Positions 7,320-22,327 of a stretch of DNA of 64,000 nt are shown piece after piece. The number at the start of each line of letters is the position of its first letter. The stretch's first letter is position 1. Both the position numbers and the translations under genes were made by a program. Source of the stretch: an uncultured bacterium (GTDB lineage Bacteria; Chloroflexota; UBA5177; JANWHV01); the NCBI GenBank assembly GCA_963827235.1, contig CAWHAE010000009.1, forward strand, positions 320,001-384,000, written 5' to 3'. The notes under the pieces are model-generated. The model was not told the origin of the DNA, did no database searches, and saw only the letters and a list, made by a program, of their open reading frames with translations.

Positions 7320-9827
7320 TCAGCGCGCTGCGCCCTGCCGGTGCATGCGGGCGTGCAGGGCGGCCATCGCCTCATGGAAGGGTCGCTCCAGATATGCCTG
7401 GTGATCCGCTTCACCATGCGCATGCGTGATGCGGTGCGATGGCTCCTGCCGGCTGCGGGTGCGAATATACTCGAGGCTGCCCTCGAGCAGCGTCAGCATA
7501 TAGGTCGCCACCTGGGCATCGTGGAGCCACCAGTCTCCACCTACCGCGATGTAGATCGGTGACGTATGGGCCATGATGCCCCGTTGCCAGCAGTCGAAAT
7601 GGCGGACCGCGTCGACGTAGCCAGGTCCACCCACCCGCGCCGCTAGCCAGGTATGGCTGCTGATGGTGAGACGGGTCCTCAGGCAGAGCCGGCGCGCGCC
7701 GCCCGCCTGCTCGGTCACCGCCACCACGCGACCCTGTTGCACGATCTCCAGTCGGTGCATAGGGAGGATCGACTCCGCCCAGGCCTTTACCTCCACTGTG
7801 CCGCCGTTCCCTGGCAGGGCGATACTGTCGCCAATCTGGTACCCGTCCACCGTGAAATCGAGGATCGGGCCCCCACTGTGGAAGGTGCGCCCGGCCCGCA
7901 GATTGCGGCACCAGCTCTCATAGCTGAACTCCTCGTCGGGGATGCGCACGTACGTGCGATAGAGCCCCACCGGCACGTCCGCCGACATCTTGTCGGTCCC
8001 GCCGACTAGCGGCAGCCGATAGCCGCAATTGAGATAGCGGTAGTACTCCAGGTGCTCGTACAGCCCGCACGTGGTCATCTCCAGCGCATCGGCGCGACCG
8101 GTGGCGATCAGGGCCGCCGGCTCGCCGTTGGGCTCCGGCGCGTGCGGAACGACCACGGTCCCACCCTGCTGGTGGCACTGGTCGGCCCAGTACGCCAGGG
8201 TGGTCTCCAGCGTGCCGCCCATCTCTGCTTCCTCCGGCCCGTCGGAGCACCAGGGCAGCACCGGTTCCCGCAAGCCGAGCAGCGAGAGGTGCCCCAGCAT
8301 GTGCTGACGGTTCTCCTGCGATGCGTAGACGATGGTCCTCCCATCGGCCGAGTGAAGCGGTCGCCCGATAAACTCCTCGGTGCTGGTGAATAGGTGGCCC
8401 CACTGCGACTGCAGGAGGTTGACCACGTTCAGGTCCTCGCCGCGCGCCTCCGTCTGCGCTCCGATCGTCGAGAGGAAGTGTACGTGGGTGTCGCCGCTAA
8501 AGTAGCCGCGCGCGTTCATGTCGCACCAGCGCCGGAGCCGCAGCTGCAAGCGCTGCTGGCCCGGCTCGATGCGCACGGACGTGCGAAGCGGCTCATACTC
8601 GAAGCCGCGGGCGACGTCGACCATCACCTCGCCGCGCGGCAGCCAGCCTTCACAGCGGCCGTCGATGTAGGCGTAGGTCGCCTGCCCAAGCTGGACATCA
8701 CCGCCTATGTCGATGTGCCAGGTGCCCATGCCGCCGTTCAGGTGGGCGTGGTGGCCGTACGGCGCATAGGGTACCCCGTCGGCCGAGCGAAAGTGGATAC
8801 GGCACGGAACGGGTAGGCCGGTGGCATCGTCGACGACTTCGGTCCGCACCCAATTGCGCCCCGCATCCGTGATCGCGACCTGCAGGCGGGGTGACGGGGT
8901 CAGACTCCCTACACGCTCCAGGTCGGCCCAGCACACTCGGCCTAGCTCCTCGTCGCGTAGGGTGACCCGCAGGATAGCGGACGGCGTAGCAGCTACCCGC
9001 ACGTAGGCGGGGCTGCTGCCCGGGTTCACCGGGACCCCAAAGCCGGGCAGCGCGGAGCCCACGGAAGTGCCGGCGGTCTCGGCGGGCAGAGCGTAGGGAA
9101 AGCCGGCGATGCCACGATCGACCTGCACGCCAAGGGCGAACGGCTGCGCGGCATCGGTAGCCTGTGGCAGGGTGATGGTGACTGTAGTGGCGCCACGACG
9201 GCAGAACGGCTCCTCCGCCAGATGCCCCAGCGTCACCGCTGCCAGCAGAAAATCCGGGCCGGCCGGCTCGACCATAAGGCGGCGGATCGGGCGCTCTGGC
9301 TGTGGATTGGACCAAGCCCACAGATAGTACGCGAGTGGACGGCTCTGCTCCACCTCGGTCAGCCGCGCGCCGGCATCGCCCCAGGACCCGGCAGAGCGGG
9401 CGGGCAAGCCGTCGGGCCGATCGGGCACAGCCAGGAAGGGTAGCTGGCCCCAGCGCGTCGGTACCGTGGCAATCTCGAAGCGCTCGCGGATCGGCAGACG
9501 GGTGCTGCCGCCGTCGGCAAACTCGATGACGTAGTGGGCGACGATCTCGCCCAACGGCCCGCCCGCCAACAGGTGCGAAGCCAGTAGTCGATGAACGAAT
9601 AGCACGTGCCGGGCGGTCCGGTCGCCGACCGGGATGGCAAGAGCCGGCGCGCTGCCATCCAGCCGGACCAGGCAAGCGCCGCCACTGCCGCTCGACGGCC
9701 CGATCTGAAACGGGATCCCATGGAAGGCCTGCAGGCCGGTGGGGAGTCTGTCCGCGCTCGCCAGGCAGTCCGCGCCGGCGTTGCAGACGGCTGATAGGTC
9801 AACCGGGGAATAGTCGGCTTCGACCAT
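7320..9827 (-). CDS. CehA/McbA-like metallohydrolase (PHP-like domain) with N-terminal beta-sandwich domains
   Basis: RGFEYEP, FSGDTHVH, QENRQHMLGHL, YYRYLNCGYRLPLVGGTD, AHTSPIY; GGAGG before ATG 9827. Confidence 0.8.
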   Translation of the reverse strand: MVEADYSPVDLSAVCNAGADCLASADRLPTGLQAFHGIPFQIGPSSGSGGACLVRLDGSAPALAIPVGDRTARHVLFVHRLLASHLLAGGPLGEIVAHYVIEFADGGSTRLPIRERFEIATVPTRWGQLPFLAVPDRPDGLPARSAGSWGDAGARLTEVEQSRPLAYYLWAWSNPQPERPIRRLMVEPAGPDFLLAAVTLGHLAEEPFCRRGATTVTITLPQATDAAQPFALGVQVDRGIAGFPYALPAETAGTSVGSALPGFGVPVNPGSSPAYVRVAATPSAILRVTLRDEELGRVCWADLERVGSLTPSPRLQVAITDAGRNWVRTEVVDDATGLPVPCRIHFRSADGVPYAPYGHHAHLNGGMGTWHIDIGGDVQLGQATYAYIDGRCEGWLPRGEVMVDVARGFEYEPLRTSVRIEPGQQRLQLRLRRWCDMNARGYFSGDTHVHFLSTIGAQTEARGEDLNVVNLLQSQWGHLFTSTEEFIGRPLHSADGRTIVYASQENRQHMLGHLSLLGLREPVLPWCSDGPEEAEMGGTLETTLAYWADQCHQQGGTVVVPHAPEPNGEPAALIATGRADALEMTTCGLYEHLEYYRYLNCGYRLPLVGGTDKMSADVPVGLYRTYVRIPDEEFSYESWCRNLRAGRTFHSGGPILDFTVDGYQIGDSIALPGNGGTVEVKAWAESILPMHRLEIVQQGRVVAVTEQAGGARRLCLRTRLTISSHTWLAARVGGPGYVDAVRHFDCWQRGIMAHTSPIYIAVGGDWWLHDAQVATYMLTLLEGSLEYIRTRSRQEPSHRITHAHGEADHQAYLERPFHEAMAALHARMHRQGAAR

Positions 9828-9985
9828 CGCTGGCACCTCCTGTGGCCTACACGCTACTTCTGCTAGAGTAGCACGTGGACACGGCACAGCCTGCCGCCAG
9901 CGTGTGTGGGCACCTCAGGTTGCAGGGCGGGTGAATCATGCATCACACCACACGCGATACTCCTCAGCCATGGGCGAACCTCGCC

Positions 9986-11532
9986 TCACAGTGCGCCGGC
10001 CTCATCCATGGTCATGGCACGCCCATCCGCCCACGCTGCCTCGAACGCCACGGGGCCCAACGCCGCGCGGAGCGCCGTGACGGCGGTTTCAATGCGGGGG
10101 CGTTCGTTCGGCGGCAGACGGAGTCCGATGATCTCTCGACCGGCCTCGTGCAGGGCCGCTTCCTCGGCCAGCAGGAGGTAGTAGTGCGCGTGCGCGCGTT
10201 GCGCGGCAGCCAGAGCACCGCCGCTATCGAGCCGTTCAAGCCCGAGCTCGCGAATTGTCTCCAGCATGCCGATACGCGTCTCGCCATCGGCCAACTCGGT
10301 GCGCTACACCAGGCTCTTCTCCACCAGGGAGTGGAGTCCCGCCAGCACATCGCCGGTGTGGGCGTCCGTTGCCCTGACCAGCGCGGCGACCGCTTCCGGC
10401 GCGCAGCCGCTGCTGAATACGCTCAGGAGCTGGAAGAGCGTCTGCTCGCCTGGATCGAGTAGCTCGTAGCTCCAGGCGATCGTGGCGCGCATTGTCTGCT
10501 GGCGTGCAGGAAGGTCGCGCGCCCCCGATCAGTACGTCGAGCCGTCGCTCCAGCCGCGCCAGCAGCGCGTGGGGCGAGTACAGGCGGACCTGGGCAGCAG
10601 CCAGCTCCAGGGCCAGCGGCAGTCCTTCCAGACGCGAGCAAACCGCGGCCACCGTGGCGGCGTTGGCCGGAGTGATTGCGAAGTCCGGGTGGTGCGCGCT
10701 CCGCGAAGAGGGCTAGCGAAGGATAGCGCGCAAGGACGTCGAGCGGCGGCAGGTGCTGCAGGTCGGGCAGCGGCAGCGGGGCACCGGAACCTCGCGTTCC
10801 CCGCGCAGACGCAGAGCGGCACTGCTCGTGACCAGCACGTGCAGACCGGTACAGACTTCGAGCAAGCGTGCCAGCTCGGGGCCGGCAGGCAGCAGGTGCT
10901 CAAAGTTGTCCAGCACCAACAGGAGCTGCTTGGCGCGCAGCTGGCACGCCAGCTCCTCGACCACGGGGCCATTGCTTTCCACGCGCAAGCCTACACTCTG
11001 CGCCAGCACGGCCGGCAGCAACGCTGGGTCCTGCAGGCCCGCCAGGGGGACAAACACCACGCCGCCGGCGTAGGCCCGGGCAAGTCCCGCTGCGGCGGCC
11101 AGCGCCAGCCGTGTCTTGCCCACTCCGCCAGGGCCCGTCAGCGTGATCAGCCGAGCTCTCGACGGCCCAGCCGGCTCCAGGAGCAGGAGGTCGGTCAGGC
11201 CCTGAAGCTCCGTCTCGCGACCGAGCAGCGGGGTCAACGGCATCGGCAAGGTATCGCGAGGGCCGTCATGCGTGCCGGAACGCGCCGGTCCCGCGCCACG
11301 CCGCTGGCACTCGGCCACGAACGCGATCTGCTGCTGTCCGGACAGGCCCAGGGCGGCAGCCAGCCGCAGGGCACTCTCACGTTGCGGTGAGCGATTGATG
11401 CCGCGTTCCAGATCGCTGATACCGCGTACGCTGAGTCCGGCCCGTTCCGCCAGCGCTTCCTGAGACACACCGGCCTCCAGGCGGTACCGGTCGCAGCACG
11501 TCGCCGAACGATCCGTGCGCTGTGCCGGTCAT
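9986..11532 (-). pseudogene. Disrupted XRE-HTH + NB-ARC/AAA ATPase + TPR regulator
   Basis: SFGDVLR/RYRLEAGVSQEALAERAGLS, Walker A GPGGVGKTRLA, LLVLDNFEHL, LEGLPLALELAAA, IAWSYELL, LVEKSLV, MLETIRE are spread over several frames; most of the TPR region is missing. Confidence 0.85.
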
Positions 11533-11967: not shown

Positions 11968-12600
11968 CTAGAGTTGCCTGTCATCTCCGGCCATGCCTGC
12001 ACGGTCGTCGCGGCGCCGGTGCCGGAGTCGCTCGACAGCCATTGCCGTCACGATAATACCGAGGAGGATCCAGAAAGCCGCGCGCATGGCCAGCAGCAGG
12101 ACCTGGCTGGCCAGGCGCGGCAGGTTCGTCCAGAACAGCGCGCTAGCCGAGACGATGTGCAGCTGCGCGCTGTCGAAGGTGAGCCACTGCCGGCGAGCCG
12201 GGTAATAGTACTCGACGGTGACCTTGTGCCACCCCAGCTGCTTGAAGCGGTGCGTCACCGCATACCCCTTGGCGACGGCGCCATCGTCGAACACCCAGCG
12301 GAACGGCGTCCGCAGCATCTCGGCCGAGAGCGAGCTCCCTACCTTCGCCACATCCTCGCTCAGGTGCAGGCTGTCGCCCGGTGCTGCCGCCGGCAGCGTG
12401 AACGGCGCCCAGTGAGCAGCATCCACCTGAGAAGGCGTGCCCTCGGTGAGGCTGGCCGTGGTGCCGTTCATCGCGATGGAGGCAATGCCATTCAGGCTGC
12501 AGGCCCGGGCAGTTGCCGCCTGCCCTGCCACCGCCGCGAACGTGAGCAGCACGCACGCCAGCACCCGGCCGGGCGAGAGGCGAGCGACGTGAGCAGTCAT
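11968..12600 (-). CDS. Secreted PKD-like protein with N-terminal Cys and C-terminal membrane anchor (paralogue 1)
   Basis: Signal ending ARA-C, FRWVFDDG..HRFKQLG PKD motif, C-terminal hydrophobic helix plus basic tail; GGAG RBS. Confidence 0.8.
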   Translation of the reverse strand: MTAHVARLSPGRVLACVLLTFAAVAGQAATARACSLNGIASIAMNGTTASLTEGTPSQVDAAHWAPFTLPAAAPGDSLHLSEDVAKVGSSLSAEMLRTPFRWVFDDGAVAKGYAVTHRFKQLGWHKVTVEYYYPARRQWLTFDSAQLHIVSASALFWTNLPRLASQVLLLAMRAAFWILLGIIVTAMAVERLRHRRRDDRAGMAGDDRQL

Positions 12601-12640
12601 GGTCCGAGCTCCTTCGGCGAGGCAACGCAGGTCTTGGCAG

Positions 12641-13132
12641 TCAGGGATGCGTGGCGTGCGGGGCGGGTGCTATGGTGATCGTCACCTGGTCGAAGGCGAT
12701 CCACTGCTTCGTCGGCGGCCAGTACGCCTCGACCACGATGCGCCGGCGGCCCGTGCGGGCATAGGCGTGCTTCACGGTCCAGCCTGTCGCGGTGCTGCCG
12801 TCGCCGAACTCCCACCGCCACGGCCGCTGCATCGCGGCCGGGACGAGTGACTTTACCACCTCGTTCCGAATCTCGGTGAATACGATCGCGCGCTCGGCGC
12901 CGTAGCCGTTTGGTAGCGAGAACGGCGCATACGTCAGGAGCTGCGCCGACGTCGTGGGCGGATCGGTCGTCAGCTGATCGAGGCGGCCGTCGGCGGTCAG
13001 CGAGGGCACGTTGTCCAGCGAGCAGGCGCCGGCGCGGCCAACGGAGAGCAGCGATCCTATGGCCAGGACGGCCGCGATGACAGCCGTAGAGATGAGCGTG
13101 TGTCGCCGGGTGCCGGCTCCCAGGTTCTTCAC
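12641..13132 (-). CDS. Secreted PKD-like protein with N-terminal Cys (paralogue 2)
   Basis: Signal ending AGA-C, WRWEFGDG..HAYARTG; GTG start just after the stop of the SCO fusion. Confidence 0.8.
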   Translation of the reverse strand: MKNLGAGTRRHTLISTAVIAAVLAIGSLLSVGRAGACSLDNVPSLTADGRLDQLTTDPPTTSAQLLTYAPFSLPNGYGAERAIVFTEIRNEVVKSLVPAAMQRPWRWEFGDGSTATGWTVKHAYARTGRRRIVVEAYWPPTKQWIAFDQVTITIAPAPHATHP

Positions 13133-13136
13133 CTGC

Positions 13137-14279
13137 TCATGCCTCGAGCAGCGCCCGGATGGTGGTGACGACACGCGACGGCAAGAACGGCACGTCATAA
13201 TAGGCGCGCAGCCGGCCTGCCGGGTCGATCAGGAACAGTCCGGCCTGGTGCACGATCGCGGTCGTCGGCTTGAAAATGGGCGGAGGCGCTTCCACGTCGA
13301 CCCCATAGGCGCTCCATATGCGAGACAGCACGGGTCGCGGGGCGGTCAGGTAGTGCCAGTCGCCGCCCGGCCAGCCTGCATCCCGCGCGAATTGCGCCGT
13401 CGCGCCGGGGCTATCCAGCTCAGGCTCCACGCTGACCGCTACGATGCTCAGCCTGGACGCATCCTTGCCCAGGTCGTTCCGCACCAGGGTGAGGGCCTTG
13501 CCCACCAGCGGGCATTGCTCCTTGCACAGTGCACTGATGAACGTCAGCGCCACCACCCTGCCGCGCAGTTGCTCGGGCGTGATCAGCGTGCCGTGCTGAT
13601 CGCGCAGGGCAAAGGGGTGGGCTACCGCGGCGGGCCGATACACCGCGTCGGCGGCGATGGCCGGCGCACCTCGCTGTGCCGGCTGGTCGGCGACCAGCGA
13701 CGGCTGGAGGAGCGTGGTGCAGCTCGGGCACTGAATGGCTCCGATCTGCGCCATGCCGTCGCGCACGGTGCCGGCGTCCAGCGGCCCGACCCACTCCGCC
13801 TGCAGACGTCCTGCCTCGTTGATGAAGAAGCTGGTAGGCCGCGCGCCTACGTCATAGGACCACGCCACGCTCTGTCGCGCATCCACGCCGACGGCATAGG
13901 GGATATGGGCCGCGCGGACGAATGCGCGAGCGGACGCGACTGTGTCGCCGCCGGTGGCCACGCCGACCACGCGGATACCCTCCGCCTGGTAGGCGTGCAC
14001 CGCCTGGCGCAACACGGGCAGCTCGTCGAGACAGTCCGCACACTGCGTGTTGAAGAAGTTCAACAGCACGGGATGACCGCGGAATGCGCGCAGCGAGACG
14101 CCGGCACCCGCACCGGAGGCCTGGGGGAGTGTGAAATCGGGCGCCGGCGGGACCAACGCGGCCGGTGCCTGGTGGGCCGCGAACGCCACCACGCCCCCAA
14201 GTGAGGCCACACAGACGACCATCACCGCCGCGAAAACGCGAAGGCGCGTCCCGCGCAAGCGTCGTAGCCAACCAATCAT
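13137..14279 (-). CDS. Membrane-anchored TlpA/redoxin + SCO1/SenC fusion protein
   Basis: APDFTL..VLLNFFNTQCADC (thioredoxin CxxC), linker CPSC, FALRDQHG..CKEQCP..IVHQAGLFLIDPAG (SCO CxxxC + His). Confidence 0.88.
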   Translation of the reverse strand: MIGWLRRLRGTRLRVFAAVMVVCVASLGGVVAFAAHQAPAALVPPAPDFTLPQASGAGAGVSLRAFRGHPVLLNFFNTQCADCLDELPVLRQAVHAYQAEGIRVVGVATGGDTVASARAFVRAAHIPYAVGVDARQSVAWSYDVGARPTSFFINEAGRLQAEWVGPLDAGTVRDGMAQIGAIQCPSCTTLLQPSLVADQPAQRGAPAIAADAVYRPAAVAHPFALRDQHGTLITPEQLRGRVVALTFISALCKEQCPLVGKALTLVRNDLGKDASRLSIVAVSVEPELDSPGATAQFARDAGWPGGDWHYLTAPRPVLSRIWSAYGVDVEAPPPIFKPTTAIVHQAGLFLIDPAGRLRAYYDVPFLPSRVVTTIRALLEA

Positions 14280-14442
14280 GACGGGTCGTCCCTTTGTATC
14301 GGGCAGCGCTTGTGTGGGGCTCTGATCCGCAATATAGCAGGTTCCCGCTTGCTATGCTTGTCATGTCGCGCCGCCCCCGCCCGTGGGGTGGCGCCGGGCG
14401 CTTGCAGCGCAGCCGCTCGTGCCGTAGTGTGAGGTCAGGTGT

Positions 14443-14925
14443 ATGGGTATGGGTGTGCGCGAGAGGAGAGAAGCGTTGGCACGGTCTGCGTGGCAACCGG
14501 CTGCAGTGATTGGTTGTGTGGCAGTGCTGCTGATCGCGTCGGGACTGCGCTCCGTGGCCGCCTGCGACATCGACGGCCTGCCGTCATTGACGGTCGATCA
14601 CACCCTCGTCCTCGTGAACAGCGAGCAGCCGACCAGCCCGGCCACACTCAAAGTCTGGGCGCCGTTCGTCCCGCCCTTCAGCCTGATCGCAACGCGCACC
14701 TATACGTTCGCCGAGATCCGCCAGCGAATTCCCCTGACGCCTGAGGCCTTCGAGAATTCCTGGCGCTGGGCGTTCGGCGACGGGACGCCGCCGGCACGCG
14801 GGGACAGCGTGCGGCACGTCTATCGGCGGCCCGGCGTGTACAGGGTCACCGTCGCTGCCTACTTCCCCTCCCACAAGATCTGGTACACGTTCGACGCTCT
14901 CCAGGTGCGCGTGACGGTGGGCTGA
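14443..14925 (+). CDS. Secreted PKD-like protein with N-terminal Cys (paralogue 3)
   Basis: Signal ending VAA-C, WRWAFGDG..HVYRRPGVYRVTV; start could be 14449. Confidence 0.8.
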   Translation: MGMGVRERREALARSAWQPAAVIGCVAVLLIASGLRSVAACDIDGLPSLTVDHTLVLVNSEQPTSPATLKVWAPFVPPFSLIATRTYTFAEIRQRIPLTPEAFENSWRWAFGDGTPPARGDSVRHVYRRPGVYRVTVAAYFPSHKIWYTFDALQVRVTVG

Positions 14926-15046
14926 CCCCGGCCCGGCCACCACGCCTGAGCGCGCGCGAACCGGGCCGGGTGGGCTCCCGGCGGCGAGCCGGACCCGCTC
15001 GAGGTCACCGGTACGCGCGGACGTTATCGCCTGCGATGAGCGCATC

Positions 15047-18000
15047 TCAGGGATTGTCGACGGCCGCTTCGTTCGAGCCCACGGGCGATGGCACTACGGC
15101 CACCACGCGATTGTCTGCCGTGCGGATGATCGTCACGGCGTTGCCGCCGATGCTGGCCACGTAGACGTACTTGCCGTCCGCCGTCACGTCGGGCCCGTGC
15201 GGCTGTGCCGCCACCGGGATCGTGGCGATCACCTTGCGCCGCGCGGCGTCGATCGCGCTCATCTCGTTGCCGAGCTGGTCGGCCACATACACCGTGCGCC
15301 CATCCGGCGCGGCCACCAGCAGCGCCGGTCCCTTGCCTACCGGAATGGTCGCCACCACGCGCAGGGTGCGCTCGTCGATCACCGACACATTGCCGGCAGT
15401 CTGGTTGGCCACCCAGACTTCGTGACGAGGCCCATCCACGGCCACGCCGTAGGCGCCCGGCGCGGTGATCACGGTGCGCCCCGGCCTGAGCGTGGTGGTG
15501 TCGACGGTGTAGACCCAGGCACCGCCGGCGCAGGCCACATACAGGGTCTTGCCATCCTCCGCGATGTCGATGCCGTGCGGCTCGAAACACGTGCCGTCGG
15601 GGAACTCGATCTGCCGGCTCGTGCCGGTCCTCAGATCGAGCACGGAGAGATCGTTGGAGCGGAAGTTGGTGACGAAAGCGCGCCGGCGATCGGGCGTGAA
15701 CACCACGTGGGCCGGCCCAAGTCCCACGGCAAAGGTGCGCACTACCCGCATGCCGCGCAGATCGATCTGCGTCACCGTGCCGGGATCGGCGCCGAAGTTG
15801 GTGACGAAGGCATACGGTGTGCCGTCGAGCACGTCCACGCCGTGCGCTTGCGCGCCCGTGTGCAGGATGGACCCGCCCAGCTTGCGGACGCCGTTGGAGC
15901 CCATCTCCGTCACCAGCACCGTGTAGGGCAGAGCGCGGGCAACAGCCAGGTTATAGGCCTGGCTCAGATTCGCCGAGCGCGCCGGCAGGCCGGCGGGGTT
16001 CGTGCCGGTTTGCGCTGTGAGCAGGTGCATGGGCCCGCTCAGCGGCACATAGTAGGTGAACTGGCGCAACGTGACCCAGGCACCACTCCGCTGCGCCTGA
16101 ATGGTCAGCCCCCAGCGGCCGTTCATCGGCGCGAACGCGTCGCGCACCACCCAGCGACCGCCGCCGAGCGCCGTGGCCGGATAGGTGAGGACGCCCATGT
16201 CCATATCCAGCGACTGCGAAAGCATTCGCACCGCCGAGGCCTGCCCGATGCCGCCTAGCGTGAAGGTGTTGGGCGCGCTGATCAGCCCGGGCGTGGCGAC
16301 AATGCTCACGGCAGCCGAACCGGACTGGTCGAGAAAGGAGGCGCCTGGTCCGGCGATGAACGTGAACGGAAGATCTCGGTACTCGCCGGGATCGTCGCGC
16401 GTACGCACCATCACGTCGGCGCGCCACTGCCCGGCCTGGACGAGGTCGCCGGTCCCGTTGTAGCCGCCGGCAGCCGGCGTGGTCTCCACGAAGGTGTAGC
16501 CCAGTGATGATTGGCCCGGCACGCTCAATCGGATGCGCACCTGGCCGTCGGTCACCTTCCGGCCGCGCTCGGCCACGAGCACGCGAAACGTCGTGCTGCC
16601 TAGGGCCGGCGGCCTGATCGTCAGCGTCGCCTGCAACACGCCCGCTGTAGCACTGCCCGTGATCGCGCCCGGCACCGGTACCGAGGGCGTGGCCGGAGCC
16701 ACGGGCGTGCCGGTCGTCGAGACCACGCTGCTGAACACCGCGGCCGCCGGGGCCGTCTGCCCCATCAGTGCCACGCACAACAGGATGAGGGCGCCGAGCG
16801 CCGGCTCGATGCGCAGGCGCAGGGCAAGCGATGCATACCCGCGTTCGGCCGCCGGTGAGTCGGCCGGCAACCCGCGCAGTCGGGGACGGGTGACAAACAC
16901 GTGGGAAGCGCTCAGCAGCACGATCACACCGATCAGTGCCAGCTTGACCAGCAGAAACCGGCCGTACAGAGTACCGGCGAGTTGATCGAAGCTACCAAGG
17001 TGCACCTGGGCGTTGAACATGCCGGTCACGGCAGCCGCGGCCACCGCGATGTACGCGGCAGGCGAGAAACGGTCCAGCAGGTGCAGGAAGGCTCGCCGGA
17101 GAGCAGACCCGGCCCGGTCGCCGGCCGCCAATGCGTGGAGCGCCGGCAGCAGGGCCAGGGCGATCGCCGCCATGCCGCCGACCCAGACGGCCATGGCGAT
17201 CAGGTGCAGCCAGTCAAGCAGCACGGAAGTGGCCACCATTTGCTGCACCGATGCGGCGTGCCCGGAGAAGGCCAGAGCCAGCAAGTAGGCCAAGCCCAGC
17301 GCGGCGGCGGTCCAGCCGGCCAGGACGCTTGGCTCACCGGCCGCCGCTCTGCCGGGCACCTGACCGCTCGCCGATCCGCGACGCGCGCCCACGACCTCAG
17401 CACGCAGATAGCGGCTCATGCCGGTGACCAGGCGTGATGCCCGGCCGGCCGGGGCGCCGCTGAGAACCAAGAGCGTCACGAAGGCCAGCAGCATGCGTGC
17501 CAGCCAGTAGGTGCCATAGCGCGCGCTCAGGATGGCGTCCAGCGTGTTCGCCGACACCATGCCGCTCCAGCCGCCGGCGCCGTAGGCCTGCGTCTCCAGC
17601 TCCAGCAGCGACGTCACCAGCGCAGCCAGCAGGCCCAGGCGCGCCGTCAGTACACAGCGACGCCCGGCAGCCCTGCAGAGCGAGGCCACCGCGCCTTGAC
17701 GCGTCGCCCGTGTCGACGGGAACAGCACCAGGATCTGCAGTGCCAGGGCCCCGGTCCAGAGCGCCGACGCCGCCAGCACCAGCCAGTGCGCCAGAGCCGC
17801 GGCCACCGCCGGGCCGTCGAGCGTAGGGTTTTGGGGCGCGGCGATGGCGCCCGAGGCGGCGCTCGGCGCCACGGCGCCGCTGCCGCCGGCAGTGAAGGTG
17901 TAGAAGCCGTGCAGCACGTGGCCGTCCAGCGCCGAGTCGCTGGTCCAGTAGACCGAGTAAACCCCATCGGGGAGCGCTGCCAGCCTCACATCTAGCTGTT

Positions 18001-18265
18001 CGCCGTTCGCCGGATCCACGTGGCCGGTATCGCCGTTGACCTGCCGGCCCTGAGCGTCGCGGATCACGATGCGGGAGAGTGCGGAGTTGAGGGCCTCGTC
18101 GAACCAGAAGCGATAGGTGGCGGCCTTCACCAGGACACGGCTGTCGGGCGCCAGCTCGGCGCGCACAAGGTGAGCGTGCGCTGCCGCCTGTCCGGGCAGC
18201 GCGAACAGCGCGAACAGCGCGAGCGCCAGTGCGCACGCACCGAGTAGCAGGCGGCGGACGGACAT
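15047..18265 (-). CDS. CopC-CopD-2x YtkA/FixH-like-YVTN beta-propeller fusion protein
   Basis: Signal + HAHLV..DGHVLHG (CopC); HWL, SGHA, DWLHL, KLAL helices (CopD); two beta-sandwiches, the second with MDMG; about seven YVTN-type blades. Confidence 0.88.
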   Translation of the reverse strand: MSVRRLLLGACALALALFALFALPGQAAAHAHLVRAELAPDSRVLVKAATYRFWFDEALNSALSRIVIRDAQGRQVNGDTGHVDPANGEQLDVRLAALPDGVYSVYWTSDSALDGHVLHGFYTFTAGGSGAVAPSAASGAIAAPQNPTLDGPAVAAALAHWLVLAASALWTGALALQILVLFPSTRATRQGAVASLCRAAGRRCVLTARLGLLAALVTSLLELETQAYGAGGWSGMVSANTLDAILSARYGTYWLARMLLAFVTLLVLSGAPAGRASRLVTGMSRYLRAEVVGARRGSASGQVPGRAAAGEPSVLAGWTAAALGLAYLLALAFSGHAASVQQMVATSVLLDWLHLIAMAVWVGGMAAIALALLPALHALAAGDRAGSALRRAFLHLLDRFSPAAYIAVAAAAVTGMFNAQVHLGSFDQLAGTLYGRFLLVKLALIGVIVLLSASHVFVTRPRLRGLPADSPAAERGYASLALRLRIEPALGALILLCVALMGQTAPAAAVFSSVVSTTGTPVAPATPSVPVPGAITGSATAGVLQATLTIRPPALGSTTFRVLVAERGRKVTDGQVRIRLSVPGQSSLGYTFVETTPAAGGYNGTGDLVQAGQWRADVMVRTRDDPGEYRDLPFTFIAGPGASFLDQSGSAAVSIVATPGLISAPNTFTLGGIGQASAVRMLSQSLDMDMGVLTYPATALGGGRWVVRDAFAPMNGRWGLTIQAQRSGAWVTLRQFTYYVPLSGPMHLLTAQTGTNPAGLPARSANLSQAYNLAVARALPYTVLVTEMGSNGVRKLGGSILHTGAQAHGVDVLDGTPYAFVTNFGADPGTVTQIDLRGMRVVRTFAVGLGPAHVVFTPDRRRAFVTNFRSNDLSVLDLRTGTSRQIEFPDGTCFEPHGIDIAEDGKTLYVACAGGAWVYTVDTTTLRPGRTVITAPGAYGVAVDGPRHEVWVANQTAGNVSVIDERTLRVVATIPVGKGPALLVAAPDGRTVYVADQLGNEMSAIDAARRKVIATIPVAAQPHGPDVTADGKYVYVASIGGNAVTIIRTADNRVVAVVPSPVGSNEAAVDNP

Positions 18266-18356
18266 ACTAACGCTCCCTTCGCGCAAGAGGCGCTCGGTTT
18301 CCATGGAAACGCGCCACCAGGAGCGCGTCCTCCTGGTGGCGGCTCCGGACGCTCGA

Positions 18357-18743
18357 TCAGACGACTGAGAAAGTGAACCACCCCCCGGCGTGGTGACCGT
18401 CGTTGGCCGAGATGGTGTACCAGATCAAGGCATACGTGCCCTTGGCCAGCTTGGGCACGGTCATGGTCATCTCCATCGCGTTGGAGAAGGAGACCTGGCT
18501 ATCTCCGTTATCGTCCTGACCATGATCGCCGGTGGTCTCGAAGATGCCCATAAAGCTCCCCTTCGGAGCGACTCCCTCGGCGAAGAAGCAGCTGACTGTC
18601 TTGGGCATGGCCTTGAGCTTGGCGCCGGGCGCAATGCTGCACTTCTGCAGGCTGGCGTGAGCCAGAGCCACACGCGGCGCCAGGGCGCTCATGCCCAGGA
18701 CCAGGGAGGCCGCGGCCAGCCAGCGGGTCAAATGGATACGCAT
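18357..18743 (-). CDS. copC: Copper-binding protein CopC
   Basis: Signal ending ALA-H (His1), GTYALIWYTISANDGHHAGG; AGGAG RBS. Confidence 0.85.
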   Translation of the reverse strand: MRIHLTRWLAAASLVLGMSALAPRVALAHASLQKCSIAPGAKLKAMPKTVSCFFAEGVAPKGSFMGIFETTGDHGQDDNGDSQVSFSNAMEMTMTVPKLAKGTYALIWYTISANDGHHAGGWFTFSVV

Positions 18744-18840
18744 GGACGTTTCTCCTGATTTCTGTTCTCGTTCGGCATAGGTTTGTCGCGAGCGTGCAAC
18801 GCGGCCGTTAGTGGTTCGTCAACTATGAATGCTCGCATTC

Positions 18841-18890
18841 CCCGCGACCGCAGTCGCCCAACTGCTGCCATGCGCCCGCGCTCGCAGGCC
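18841..18890 (+). repeat. Dispersed double-hairpin intergenic repeat, copy A
   Basis: cccGCGACcgcaGTCGCccaactgctgccaTGCGcccgcgctCGCAgg; similar to copies at 28897, 29004, 35899, 39660. Confidence 0.7.
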
Positions 18891-19072
18891 GCGCCTCTAC
18901 GGCAATGATTGGTTGTTGACAGACCACTGGTGCGTGGCATCGTGGCGGGATTTGTGATAGCCAAAGACCGTGCTCCACGCGGGGCAGTCGCGGGCGAGCC
19001 ATGTTCCGGCCTTCCCGCTTGCCTGAACCGTGCTGGCTTATACGCCGCCTCGCTCGTGCGGCGCGGCGACGG

Positions 19073-19840
19073 TCAGATCGGTGGCGGGCGCGAAAGCACT
19101 CCCGGGCCGCCCAAGAGGCCGCTCGGGGCGAGGGGCGGCGCCGGCGGGAAGGCCTGGCCCAGCGGTATCTGCAGCGCCTGGCTGAGCAGCCGGCGCAACG
19201 CGGTGATCGCCGCCTGAAGAGTCTCGAAGCGGCGCTCCAACCGCCAGACCAGCGCCGCGAGTAGCAACGCGACCGCCAGGTGCACGGGCAGCAGCGGAAC
19301 GGCGCTCTGCACCGCCATGGCCATGACTACTCCATGCATGTGTGTGGAGACGGTCATGGGCATCGACTGCTCAGCCAGTGCGTACAGGCCGGCCTGGACG
19401 CCGAGCAGCGGCAGCAAGAGCGCCAGCAGCCTGCCTGGATGGAGCGGCGCTCGTGCCGCCGGCGGCCGAGCCGCGACATGCAGGCACCGTGCCGTCTGCG
19501 TGAGGCGGTGCCGCTGGCCCGCGAGCCTCTGCAGCTCGCGAAACAGCGCCAGCAGCGTCAGCAGGGCGGCGGCGATCACTACCAGGAGCCCGCCTCGAAC
19601 CGGACAATGCGCCAGCATGAAGGCGACCGAGGCGGGTCGACCGTTCACACCGTCCAGGCCCAGATGGTATTCGACGACGTGGACGAGCGCTGCACCGACG
19701 CTGGCCAGCAGCAGCAGCGCGCCGGCAGAGAGGACCGGTCCGGCAGGTCCGCTCCCGGCGCGGACCCGCGGCAACGGCAGCCACGCAGCCGGTACGGCTC
19801 GCAGAGCTGACGGTGGCGGTGCGGCACGAGACCAGTACAT
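19073..19840 (-). CDS. Hypothetical ~4-TM His/Met-rich membrane protein with C-terminal RPPP motif (candidate arrest-peptide regulator)
   Basis: Four hydrophobic segments, HVVEYH, AHC, MPMTVSTHMHGVVMAM, ends GVLSRPPPI*; CATACT lies 6 nt before ATG 19840. Confidence 0.75.
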   Translation of the reverse strand: MYWSRAAPPPSALRAVPAAWLPLPRVRAGSGPAGPVLSAGALLLLASVGAALVHVVEYHLGLDGVNGRPASVAFMLAHCPVRGGLLVVIAAALLTLLALFRELQRLAGQRHRLTQTARCLHVAARPPAARAPLHPGRLLALLLPLLGVQAGLYALAEQSMPMTVSTHMHGVVMAMAVQSAVPLLPVHLAVALLLAALVWRLERRFETLQAAITALRRLLSQALQIPLGQAFPPAPPLAPSGLLGGPGVLSRPPPI

Positions 19841-19910
19841 ACTCACAGTATGCTCGCTCGTCCACTATGGACACGGGTGCGCCGCAAGCAGCAGCCAGCG
19901 CCGTCCCGCG

Positions 19911-20980: not shown

Positions 20981-21098
20981 GGTCTTGTGGCGGGCGCGGT
21001 TGCTCCGGCAGGGTGTTTGACGCGCCGGAATGCGTCCGTCGTACAGACCATCGATCGCCGCGGCGCAAGTACCGGCAGGCAAGGGAGGGATTGGATTC

Positions 21099-21470
21099 GT
21101 GCACAAGGTTGCTACTGTTGCTTCATCCCTTTTCAGTCGAATCACCCACTGGCTCGTCATCCGGAATGGAGCCCGCTACGTCCTTGCCGGCACGATCGCG
21201 CTCGCCGCGCTGGGGGCCGTGGTCGCCAACCAGGATCTGCCCAAGCCGCCTGCCATCTCCTCGGTCCTGCCGATAGGCGACAACGATCACGGGCACTACG
21301 GCTGGTATGGTTGGCACAGGCACCATCACGGGGGCTGGCAAGGCCGCGACTACTACTTCGGTCACCAGCAGACGTACGACGGCACCTGGTCGCAGGGATC
21401 CTGGGGCGGAAACGGCTACGTCGGTCAGGGCGGCAGCGGCTCAACCGGTCAATCCGGCAGCGGCTACTGA
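21099..21470 (+). CDS. Small membrane-anchored or secreted His/Gly/Trp/Tyr-rich protein
   Basis: AGGGAGG RBS before GTG 21099, one hydrophobic segment, DHGHYGWYGWHRHHHGGW, followed by a terminator. Confidence 0.7.
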   Translation: MHKVATVASSLFSRITHWLVIRNGARYVLAGTIALAALGAVVANQDLPKPPAISSVLPIGDNDHGHYGWYGWHRHHHGGWQGRDYYFGHQQTYDGTWSQGSWGGNGYVGQGGSGSTGQSGSGY

Positions 21471-21541: not shown

Positions 21542-21835
21542 GTTGCGCGGCGGCCCGGCGCGTGCGACGCTGAGAGCCCGCCAAGAGCACGGTCCTATAT
21601 CCAATTGTCTGGAGCAGGAGCGGCTTCCTGCGTACCACGTCGGCCCTCGGACGGTTCGTGTCCGCCGCGCCGAAACCTTGCTGGGCTCCCTTGGCCGCCA
21701 GCCAACAGACCACTGCGTCACGATATCCACGTGCGTCCCACTCGCACGAGCGGCAGGCAAAGTGGCAAGATGAGAGTGTATTCTTAAGTTCAATTGCACG
21801 CGACAGGGGAAGCCGCGGTATCACGGTGGGATGCG

Positions 21836-22327
21836 ATGGCAGAAGACAAAGGCACGGCGTCGATTCAGCCGGGAGGAGCGTACGCAGCGCCGGAGTCCAT
21901 GCTCTCCGCCGTCTCCTTCCTGCGCGACCACGGCTTGCGCGTCACCCCGCAGCGACTGCTGCTGGTGGAAGTCGTGCGCGGTCTGTCCGGCCACTTCACC
22001 GCCGACCAGGTCTACAACAGGGTGCGCGCCGCCTACCCGGGCGTGAGCAAGGTGAGCGTCTACAGAGGCCTCGACACCCTGCGCGAGCAGGGCCTGGTCA
22101 CCTGCACCGAGCTCGGCCAACCGTCTGCCGAGTACGAGTGGAGCGGCGCATCCCGGCACCACCACCTCGTCTGTACCCACTGCGGCTACCAGCAGAACGT
22201 GCCCGATGGCGCCATGGACATGCTGCGGCAGCGCCTGGCCTCCGACTACGGCTTCCAGGCCACCATCGACCACATCGCGATCTGGGGCGTCTGCGAAGCG
22301 TGCCACCAGGCACAGCACAAAGAGTGA
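21836..22327 (+). CDS. Fur-family transcriptional regulator (Fur/Zur/PerR)
   Basis: LRVTPQR, HFTADQVY, SVYRGLDTL, HHHLVCTHCG, GVCEAC. Confidence 0.92.
   Translation: MAEDKGTASIQPGGAYAAPESMLSAVSFLRDHGLRVTPQRLLLVEVVRGLSGHFTADQVYNRVRAAYPGVSKVSVYRGLDTLREQGLVTCTELGQPSAEYEWSGASRHHHLVCTHCGYQQNVPDGAMDMLRQRLASDYGFQATIDHIAIWGVCEACHQAQHKE

Follow-up and report, generated by a model that had tools for sequence, protein, structure and literature searches.

A candidate copper-handling locus of an uncultured Chloroflexota bacterium combining TlpA-SCO and CopC-CopD-propeller fusions with Cys-PKD proteins and an RPPP-ending membrane protein

The subject of this analysis is a cluster of seven contiguous genes (positions 11968-19846) on contig CAWHAE010000009.1 of an uncultured Chloroflexota bacterium; the window, here and below, is the whole analysed stretch of 64,000 nucleotides (nt) of this contig, with a G+C content of ~67%. 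Six of the genes lie on the minus strand, in the order RPPP-ending membrane protein, CopC, CopC-CopD-YtkA-propeller fusion, TlpA-SCO fusion, PKD2 and PKD1 (the latter two, with PKD3, being small PKD-fold proteins with a conserved Cys, hereafter Cys-PKD), and the PKD3 gene is divergent from TlpA-SCO. Signal peptides or membrane segments were found in all seven products by analysis of open reading frames (ORFs) and hydropathy, and a strong third-position GC bias characterizes all seven genes. An earlier reading, made from the sequence only, had described the region as seven contiguous envelope-targeted genes, and ORF analysis, codon-position GC bias, Pfam, NCBIfam and hydropathy all bear this out; its gene order, strands and coordinates stand, except for the start of PKD2, which moves to 13132. 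The domain content of the locus, together with the invariance of the defining CopC, CopD, SCO and TlpA ligands, supports its assignment to copper handling.

The TlpA-SCO gene (13137-14279, minus strand) encodes a membrane-anchored protein of 380 amino acids (aa), a fusion of a TlpA/ResA-type thioredoxin with an SCO1/SenC domain, with a transmembrane (TM)-like segment at aa 12-38 by hydropathy. Pfam matches include AhpC-TSA (95.9 bits), Redoxin (64.1 bits) and SCO1-SenC (74.1 bits, cut-off 22.8), and the PDB profile matches include ResA (E 5e-24), ScoI (Blr1131; E 3e-20) and YpmQ. The C80/C83 pair of the TlpA domain as well as C252/C256 and H344 of the SCO domain are invariant in all 34 fusion homologues aligned, which places the protein within the SCO1/SenC family and among the TlpA/ResA-type reductases; since the NCBIfam cut-offs for ResA/TlpA are not reached, the N-terminal half is a relative rather than an equivalog of these proteins. 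A third Cys pair (C184/C187, CxxC; 13719-13730, minus strand), located in the linker, is likewise invariant in 34 of 34 homologues and might serve as a redox relay or as an additional Cu(I) site; no equivalent is known from free-standing TlpA and Sco proteins. The fusion is recurrent in Chloroflexota, both redoxin and SCO domains being present in 71 of the 72 matches at E<=1e-20.

Two copies of CopC (PF04234) are encoded at the locus, both scoring above the Pfam cut-off (23.3 bits), with an N-terminal His exposed by cleavage and a D-x-H site. The separate CopC (18357-18743, minus strand; 128 aa), a secreted Cu(II)-binding protein by family, scores 49.7 bits, has a signal peptide ending in ALA before the His and carries an NDGHH motif. 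The second copy (aa 43-138; 17891-18178, minus strand; 43.1 bits), preceded by an AAA-H cleavage context, belongs to a large protein of 1085 aa (15047-18304, minus strand), which continues with a CopD membrane domain (aa 329-519; 16748-17320, minus strand; Pfam 64.7 bits, cut-off 32.1), a YtkA-like domain (aa 554-630) and a second, Met-bearing YtkA-like segment assigned by eye (aa ~665-760), the last two spanning 16025-16645 (minus strand). The NCBIfam copper_CopD model covers the same aa 329-519 with 85.8 bits, below its equivalog cut-off of 195, and the YtkA match (22.9 bits) falls below the Pfam cut-off of 25.9, so that the YcnJ-type domain order CopC-CopD-YtkA is present with its last member below threshold. 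Across 26 aligned homologues, the CopC ligands H43, H45, D127 and H129, the CopD histidines H349, H367, H435 and H468, and M701, M703 and M727 of the second YtkA-like segment are all invariant. The propeller-bearing form is also recurrent in Chloroflexota (31 of 77 matches in the CopCD search, 27 of them full length), and approximately 27 of the 77 have the YcnJ-like architecture without a propeller. Source databases name the fusion homologues 'CopD family protein', 'copper transport protein' and 'cytochrome oxidase Cu insertion factor', and no description of a CopD-YVTN fusion was found in the literature searched.

The C-terminal part of the large protein (aa ~800-1085; 15050-15907, minus strand; Pfam YNCE/Lactonase) is a seven-bladed YVTN beta-propeller with a TIGR02276 repeat score of 109.5 bits, for which the closest solved structure is 1L0Q, a Methanosarcina S-layer YVTN+PKD protein (E 2e-51). 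Four blade-equivalent histidines (H821, H866, H910 and H1036) are invariant in 26 of 26 homologues, as are C925, N1078 and E1079, and 1L0Q carries Q/M/L/K/S/A where the window propeller has its blade His. The 'His-lined propeller' of the sequence-only reading is thus correct with respect to the conserved histidines, their spatial lining being deduced from propeller geometry only; the His/Asn/Glu set may be located at the hub, binding a metal or a partner. Several specific identities were considered for the propeller and rejected, namely L-NosZ (85.6 bits with a cut-off of 700, on a par with the scores for other YVTN families, and only four invariant blade His) as well as hydrazine synthase and AztD (generic YVTN similarity far below the NCBIfam cut-offs). 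As a separate observation, nine Methanosarcinales loci (L011, L029, L044, L045, L046, L069, L072, L075 and L076), drawn in by generic PKD similarity in the genome scan described below, encode tandem YVTN propellers 30-39% identical to that of the window; these fit the 1L0Q S-layer architecture and suggest that the propeller module has a common origin.

The most upstream gene (19073-19846, minus strand) encodes a membrane protein of 257 aa that ends in SRPPPI and has neither a Pfam family at E<=0.01 nor an NCBIfam match. An exhaustive search delineated a family of 61 representatives at 50% identity, with a mean column identity of 29% among 36 aligned members. R253-P254-P255-P256 is invariant in all 36, together with H56, H61 (VHxxEYH) and P163, and C81-P82, M164, M168, M170 and E204 are near-invariant. 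Among the 61 representatives, 50 carry RPPP (in 46 of these no more than 12 residues from the C-terminus), and the 11 lacking it stop within or ahead of the last helix and appear to be truncated. The motif is encoded by CGC CCG CCA CCG (19079-19090, minus strand), followed by ATC (Ile) and TGA, and no other R[APGS]PP/RAGP/RAPG string occurs in the 40 ORFs of the window that were examined (13,693 aa). An AF2 model (pLDDT 79) predicts helices at 35-60, 67-79, 84-121, 137-161 and 185-226, i.e., four long and one short, as well as a beta-hairpin (165-178) over the Met motif and a tail of ~30 residues (from 227) without regular structure preceding RPPP; the positive-inside rule puts the short helix and the Met-motif hairpin on the outer side. 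The model has no PDB fold match at E<=0.001, and no relative was found in the plasmid collection searched. The nearest Atlas clusters are unannotated and commonest in Vulcanimicrobiota and Actinomycetota, and the named close homologues are from Chloroflexota.

With respect to ribosome-arrest leaders of the published RAPP-like class, the R-x-P-P string of this protein ends one residue before the C-terminus, the protein has four hydrophobic helices, and copC lies 329 nt downstream on the same strand. Motif, position, topology, candidate ligands and downstream genes all fit this class, of which the RPPP protein would be a variant, a candidate copper-sensing arrest leader. The 'arrest-like sensor' of the sequence-only reading gains real support in this respect from the invariance of RPPP, its uniqueness in the window and the reported arrest competence of Pro in the second position. 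Membership in DUF2946 (the CruR/CutF family) was rejected, given the absence of a Pfam match and the presence of a single near-invariant Cys. We regard the RPPP family as the most testable undescribed element of the locus.

The spacer between the RPPP gene and copC (18744-19072, minus strand; 329 nt) has no Rfam match, its predicted fold is no better than that of shuffled sequences (z -0.03), and its composition is distinguished by one mildly C-rich stretch (C/G ratio up to 1.56 around 18960-19000). Neither in the spacer nor in the 163-nt divergent region between TlpA-SCO and PKD3 were consensus promoters, intrinsic terminators or a shared repeat found, and the divergent region was likewise without an Rfam match or a fold better than that of shuffled sequences. 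The copC gene has a Shine-Dalgarno sequence, AGGAGA, 7 nt before its ATG, and this appears to be free. These features would fit a polarity-type coupling better than a hairpin switch, which proves nothing as to the mechanism. The divergent region contains a perfect inverted repeat, ATAGCA-N10-TGCTAT (14334-14355), the one match in the window; none of 100 shuffles gave any, and no second copy was found upstream of the RPPP or copC gene. The repeat may thus represent an operator.

PKD1, PKD2 and PKD3 are genuine paralogues, with 29-34% identity among the three and, depending on the alignment, 27-34% between PKD1 and the other two. PKD1 (11968-12600, minus strand) has Cys34 after ARA and, by hydropathy, a C-terminal membrane anchor (aa ~163-190); PKD2 (12641-13132, minus strand) is secreted, with Cys37 after AGA; and PKD3 (14443-14925, plus strand) is a secreted single-domain protein with Cys41 after VAA. 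The PKD2 gene itself is confirmed, and the ORF of the sequence-only reading, extending to 13198, is probably too long, as it overlaps the preceding gene: a GTG start lies 4 nt past the TlpA-SCO stop, in agreement with a 163-aa database gene call (P0001), and only 40 nt separate PKD2 from PKD1. PKD3 exceeds both Pfam cut-offs (PKD_4 38.3 bits, PKD 37.4 bits), PKD2 exceeds one (PKD_4 30.6 bits), and PKD1 is below both (23.7 vs. 27 and 20.2 vs. 23.5); the WxFGDG...HxY motif is invariant in the family, which thereby belongs to PKD, with only the C-terminal half of the Pfam profile aligning. The fold is confirmed by an AF2 model of PKD3 (core 45-160 with pLDDT >90), for which the best Foldseek matches are collagenase and polycystin PKD domains (TM ~0.69 on the target) and, additionally, 1L0Q; the Cys41 region (pLDDT <50) would form a low-confidence N-terminal stub.

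A profile of the three paralogues matched 34 proteins among 5.8 billion, of which 29 clusters, the window's three included, form a tight family (E<=4e-33) and the remaining five are generic multi-PKD proteins. The named members are proteins of Chloroflexota metagenome-assembled genomes, and the 29 clusters resolve into three orthologous subtypes, PKD1 (TM-anchored, 13 of 29), PKD2 and PKD3. In all 26 members covering the N-terminus, a single Cys directly follows A/V/L-x-A/S, and the subsequent motif S/A/T-L/I-D-G/N-x-P/A-S/T is kept in all three subtypes; beyond the generic PKD motif, one Glu, one Trp and an F-D pair are invariant. In a lipobox, the signal peptide would close with L-[AS]-[GA]-C. 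Here, Ala occupies position -1 almost throughout the family, -3 is mostly Ala, and -2 is often Arg, Gln, Tyr or Asn, a pattern that fits a signal-peptidase I (AxA) site better than a lipobox. A comparison with the two solute-binding proteins of the window was uninformative, the one with a clear signal peptide having no Cys. Prediction of a complex between the PKD1 ectodomain and mature PKD2 returned a score of 0.00 ('no answer') and speaks neither for nor against binding. No TlpA-Sco-PKD combination was found described in the literature searched. The Cys-PKD proteins constitute a small unannotated family, for which the operon partner provides the sole functional lead.

Co-location of these genes elsewhere was approached by a proxy, in which metagenome contigs of identical size and source (not sequence) were taken as shared, among close relatives only (60-75% identity). 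By this proxy, PKD genes are linked to TlpA-SCO or RPPP genes on four contigs in all: TlpA-SCO P0036 shares the 4746 contig (Logan) with PKD2-type P0004 and PKD1-type P0006, TlpA-SCO P0038 shares the 2417 contig (JGI) with PKD-family P0013, an SCO fragment (P0093) shares the 52769 contig (ENA) with PKD-family P0012, and RPPP homologue P0186 shares the 3259 contig (ENA) with PKD1-type P0005. TlpA-SCO and CopCD-propeller genes share a contig twice (9767 and 15785), and RPPP homologues occur once with a CopCD-propeller gene (5720, NCBI) and once with a CopC-CopD-YtkA gene (9270, JGI), so that three of the 20 RPPP homologues looked up have a contig match (two CopCD, one PKD1-type). A genome scan with 12 PKD3-type sequences yielded 79 loci, in which tblastn with 11 window proteins found no TlpA-SCO, CopC or RPPP relatives, and propeller matches only in the nine Methanosarcinales loci mentioned above; close PKD3-type relatives are present in just two of the 79 loci (L001 and L002).

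The locus is flanked by genes for a CehA/McbA-type metallohydrolase, an HTH-NTPase regulator, a SAM methyltransferase and a Fur-family regulator (Pfam, NCBIfam). The Pfam survey of the window comprised 41 ORFs in total (12 of the locus region and 29 from elsewhere), which were picked by a codon-bias filter and are not exhaustive. No cuproenzyme was found in this set, and no copper chaperone among the 29 ORFs from elsewhere; in particular, neither PCuAC (DUF461) nor YcnI (DUF1775), nor the repressor YcnK, nor an efflux ATPase, multicopper oxidase, CsoR or CopZ was detected. As to the neighbours themselves, the protein of 855 aa encoded immediately upstream of the locus (7320-9887, minus strand) has a C-terminal CehA/McbA-type metallohydrolase domain (NCBIfam, 147 bits, cut-off 80), its N-terminal 460 residues having no Pfam match. 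An ORF with HTH and STAND-NTPase domains (10713-11468, minus strand) is followed by ORFs in other frames (10236-10652 and 9986-10294); this gene (9986-11468) may be frameshifted, with the ORFs being pieces of one long regulator. On the other side, an ORF of 146 aa (21030-21470, plus strand), flanked by the genes of the methyltransferase and the Fur-family regulator (the latter at 21794-22327), contains one hydrophobic segment and a tail rich in His, Gly, Trp and Tyr (9 His). With no Pfam or NCBIfam match and a third-position GC of 0.75, weaker than that of its neighbours, it might encode a metal-binding envelope protein or be no gene at all.

Taken together, these data lead us to hold, with somewhat more confidence than doubt, that this is a two-unit locus for envelope copper supply, with an arrest leader, a TlpA-SCO protein, PKD proteins as accessory partners and oxidase clients encoded elsewhere. 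The first unit (19846 to 15047, minus strand) would open with the RPPP sensor, whose His, Cys-Pro and Met motifs are predicted to face outside. With the ribosome halted at RPPP, release of the arrest would depend on the state of the completed sensor domain, and the expression of the downstream genes would be set thereby; because the 329-nt spacer contains no predicted structure hiding the copC ribosome-binding site, the likeliest logic would be CruR-like, i.e., arrest at low copper keeping the uptake genes on. Downstream, CopC would bind Cu(II), and the YcnJ-like CopC-CopD-YtkA protein would take up or relay copper. In the second unit (14279 to 11968 and the divergent 14443 to 14925), the reductase half of TlpA-SCO would keep the SCO and target cysteines reduced, and the SCO half would deliver copper to extracytoplasmic centres, by default CuA or heme-copper oxidases whose genes lie outside the window. 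The PKD trio, with one membrane-anchored member, would expose a single Cys per protein at the signal-peptidase site and assist TlpA-SCO as accessory partners, the likeliest role being that of a redox partner or thiol-based Cu(I) relay rather than that of the end client.

A number of observations weigh against this reading. The spacer shows no structure above shuffles, Rfam match or terminator, leaving the proposed coupling mechanism unsupported by sequence, and RPPP might alternatively act as a binding motif or cause an EF-P-dependent pause. The co-location data rest on identity of contig size and source instead of sequence, and 17 of the 20 RPPP homologues remained unmatched, a number that is uninformative because the comparison lists hold only close Chloroflexota relatives. 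The two close PKD3-type loci (L001 and L002) end just upstream of the PKD gene, with unrelated genes downstream. Longer Cys-PKD relatives in Ktedonobacterales (L003, 9902-11344; L004, 4699-6477; L006, ~957-1466), in which a signal peptide is followed by a homologous first domain beginning with C-A-C-G-L-G, by two further PKD domains of ordinary type and by a membrane anchor, adjoin ybeY/dgkA (in L003 and L004) and no copper genes. A CopCD-propeller protein 79% identical to that of the window (P0108) is encoded on a 1,392,718-base contig (NCBI, ENA) on which the size-and-source comparison found no PKD or TlpA-SCO match; this close relative may lack the PKD trio or keep it elsewhere. Finally, the PKD Cys might be a lipid-attachment site, AGAC of PKD2 and VAAC of PKD3 fitting the lipobox in its loose form. 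The linkage of PKD homologues to copper genes in other genomes, on which the sequence-only reading had made its proposal depend, holds by proxy for four metagenome contigs and is not seen for the distant Ktedonobacterales relatives.

The alternative that survives best, although we consider it unlikely, is that the PKD proteins are unrelated to copper and are envelope or surface proteins, with a Cys that is lipidated or reduced by TlpA, YVTN and PKD being common building blocks of surface layers. The Methanosarcina S-layer protein, as the closest solved propeller and a fold match of the PKD3 model, is in line with this possibility, as are the genomic setting of the Ktedonobacterales relatives, with their two extra PKD domains and anchor, and the loose fit of A/V-x-A-C in PKD2 and PKD3 to a lipobox as this pattern is commonly given. 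Against it, the post-Cys motif common to three subtypes would be unusual for a lipoprotein linker, PKD1 has its own C-terminal anchor as well as Arg, Gln or Leu at position -2, and the coupling to TlpA-SCO (once to the RPPP gene) is tight and recurring.

The sequence-only reading had placed the client inside the locus, with SCO loading the Cys-PKD proteins or the propeller His site as end-point cuproproteins, and had pointed out that the usual client is missing. The latter is correct insofar as the 41 scanned ORFs contain no cuproenzyme; it weighs little, the closest characterized systems (YcnJ, Sco and CtaK) being ones that serve oxidases. Loci of this kind commonly serve oxidases with genes located elsewhere, which makes the lack of an oxidase in 64 kb weak evidence; in B. 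subtilis, the genes of the oxidases served by YcnJ, Sco and CtaK lie at other loci. An internal client would agree with the operon of PKD2 and PKD1 with TlpA-SCO (a linkage seen again on three contigs by the proxy), with the conserved Cys after an AxA site, which mirrors the ALA-H and AAA-H sites exposing the N-terminal His of CopC, and with the four invariant blade His plus N1078/E1079, for which 1L0Q has other residues. Nevertheless, the potential ligands of the PKD proteins amount to one tail Cys, a His of the generic motif and a few acidic residues, with no conserved Met- or His-rich site, which is little for an end-point copper site; their distant relatives are not copper-linked; and the propeller scores no better against L-NosZ than against other YVTN families. 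In addition, the PKD family is far rarer (29 clusters vs. 72 for TlpA-SCO and 31 for CopCD-propeller), and because it is so much narrower, the TlpA-SCO and CopCD-propeller families must work without PKD in most genomes. We therefore rate an internal client as distinctly improbable and infer oxidase clients elsewhere. More improbable still is a joint reading, in which the PKD trio would be a class of extracytoplasmic Cu(I) chaperones replacing PCuAC as the dedicated TlpA-SCO partner, the His/Asn/Glu set of the propeller a copper site on the transporter and the RPPP protein the founder of a family of full-size membrane copper sensors acting by ribosome arrest; by analogy with CopC, the membrane-tethered PKD trio would then expose an N-terminal Cys in the way CopC exposes its His, together binding Cu(I).

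The weakest alternative, copper tolerance instead of supply, with CopC/CopD and the extra domains sequestering or moving excess copper and the RPPP leader turning the genes on at high copper in a CutF-like manner, can draw on the first naming of CopC/CopD as resistance proteins, on the NCBI label 'copper resistance protein CopC' of homologues and on the CutF precedent of copper-induced stalling that turns on a detoxification gene (10.1101/2025.02.05.636593), but it is very unlikely in view of the ORF scan, which revealed no efflux ATPase, multicopper oxidase, CsoR or CopZ, the match of CopC-CopD-YtkA to YcnJ, which is active under copper starvation (PMC13344008), the role of SCO and TlpA as assembly rather than resistance factors, and the lack of a predicted hairpin over the copC ribosome-binding site.

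Copper delivery to extracytoplasmic enzymes is poorly mapped beyond Proteobacteria and Bacillus. In this Chloroflexota lineage, CopC capture, CopD transport, YtkA relay, TlpA reduction and SCO delivery appear to be packed into two large fusions, an architecture that supports the physical partnerships inferred in model systems. Should RPPP prove to arrest ribosomes, the copper-responsive RAPP/RGPP leaders would extend to a third motif and to a four-helix sensor of ~250 residues.

Comparison with known systems helps to define which parts of the locus have precedents. The Methanosarcina mazei protein 1L0Q shows that YVTN propellers and PKD modules occur together, and it also shares the fold of the PKD3 model; in contrast to the window, it is one secreted chain with no copper context and no blade His, whereas at the present locus the propeller is part of a CopCD transporter fusion and each PKD domain stands alone as a protein with its own Cys.

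For the RPPP protein, the closest parallels are CruR (Bordetella), CutF (Rhodobacter) and four-TM RAPP/RGPP proteins of Streptomyces lividans such as SLIV_18480, all of them membrane or secreted proteins with candidate copper ligands and R-x-P-P near the stop, encoded upstream of copper-homeostasis genes on the same strand, with a type of motif depleted elsewhere in the proteome. Fujiwara et al. 2025 describe C-terminal RAPP/RGPP motifs as depleted from proteomes and as clustering at the ends of small proteins destined for secretion or the membrane, the leaders preceding, among other genes, those for YcnI-family proteins, PCuAC and thioredoxins; seven RAPP/RGPP proteins of S. lividans arrest translation, including, in vitro, one with four TM segments and a predicted His3-Met site (PMC12992588). 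According to the same source, the Arg of RAPP is irreplaceable, replacement of Ala by Pro is partly permissive in ApdA and E. coli ApdP and almost fully so in B. subtilis ApdP, and random screens gave RxPP with x = Gly, Ala, Ser or Pro (PMC12992588). The string 'RPPP' itself is absent from the main text and from seven of the eight supplementary files of that article, Fujiwara 2024 names RPPP only as one of the motifs looked for in E. coli and B. subtilis, and beyond one such listing of the motif, RPPP together with copper was not found in the literature searched. In the CruR system, copper sensed by the nascent chain relieves the RAPP arrest, and Rho then terminates before the uptake gene (PMC9426467), whereas in the CutF system the ribosome stalls on a PPP motif in response to copper, which exposes the ribosome-binding site of cutO (10.1101/2025.02.05.636593). 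The window protein differs from these leaders in having RPPP rather than RAPP/RGPP, no DUF2946, a larger size (257 aa), HxxEYH, HCP and PMxxxMxMxGxxMxM motifs and a 329-nt spacer after it, the comparison with SLIV_18480 being by description and not by sequence.

The S. lividans sco operon resembles the window locus in the clustering of an Sco chaperone with other copper-handling genes. Its gene content includes Sco, ECuC and a CopCD-type protein; it is without a TlpA fusion, PKD proteins or a propeller, and it uses the PCuAC-like ECuC, which was not found among the window ORFs scanned. In that operon, Sco is clustered with copper-handling genes away from the oxidase genes (PMC3603459).

The TlpA-ScoI-PcuC system of Bradyrhizobium is similar in that a reductase and an Sco protein act together outside the membrane, the SCO half of the window fusion being nearest to ScoI/YpmQ and its N-terminal half to ResA/TlpA-type proteins. 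TlpA reduces ScoI. The roles of Bradyrhizobium ScoI and PcuC are in CuA assembly (PMC6669012). By comparison, TlpA and SCO of the window are one polypeptide with a third Cys pair, no PCuAC/PcuC gene was found among the ORFs scanned, and three Cys-PKD genes are present where an accessory chaperone might be expected.

The nearest precedent is YcnJ of B. subtilis, which, when copper is scarce, supports both heme-copper oxidases, Qox and Cta, and whose YtkA domain overlaps in function with CtaK, a protein working with Sco on CuA (PMC13344008). The large window protein shares with YcnJ the CopC-CopD-YtkA order, conserved copper ligands and a nearby SCO gene; it differs by the addition of a YVTN propeller and a second Met-bearing YtkA-like segment, and the locus by a separate CopC gene, by YcnI and YcnK not being found in the scanned window ORFs and by apparent control through an RPPP leader instead of a repressor. 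Overall, the sequence-only reading overstated the case in presenting an undescribed system: the core consists of known YcnJ/Sco/TlpA-type modules, to which the Cys-PKD and RPPP families are two uncharacterized additions.

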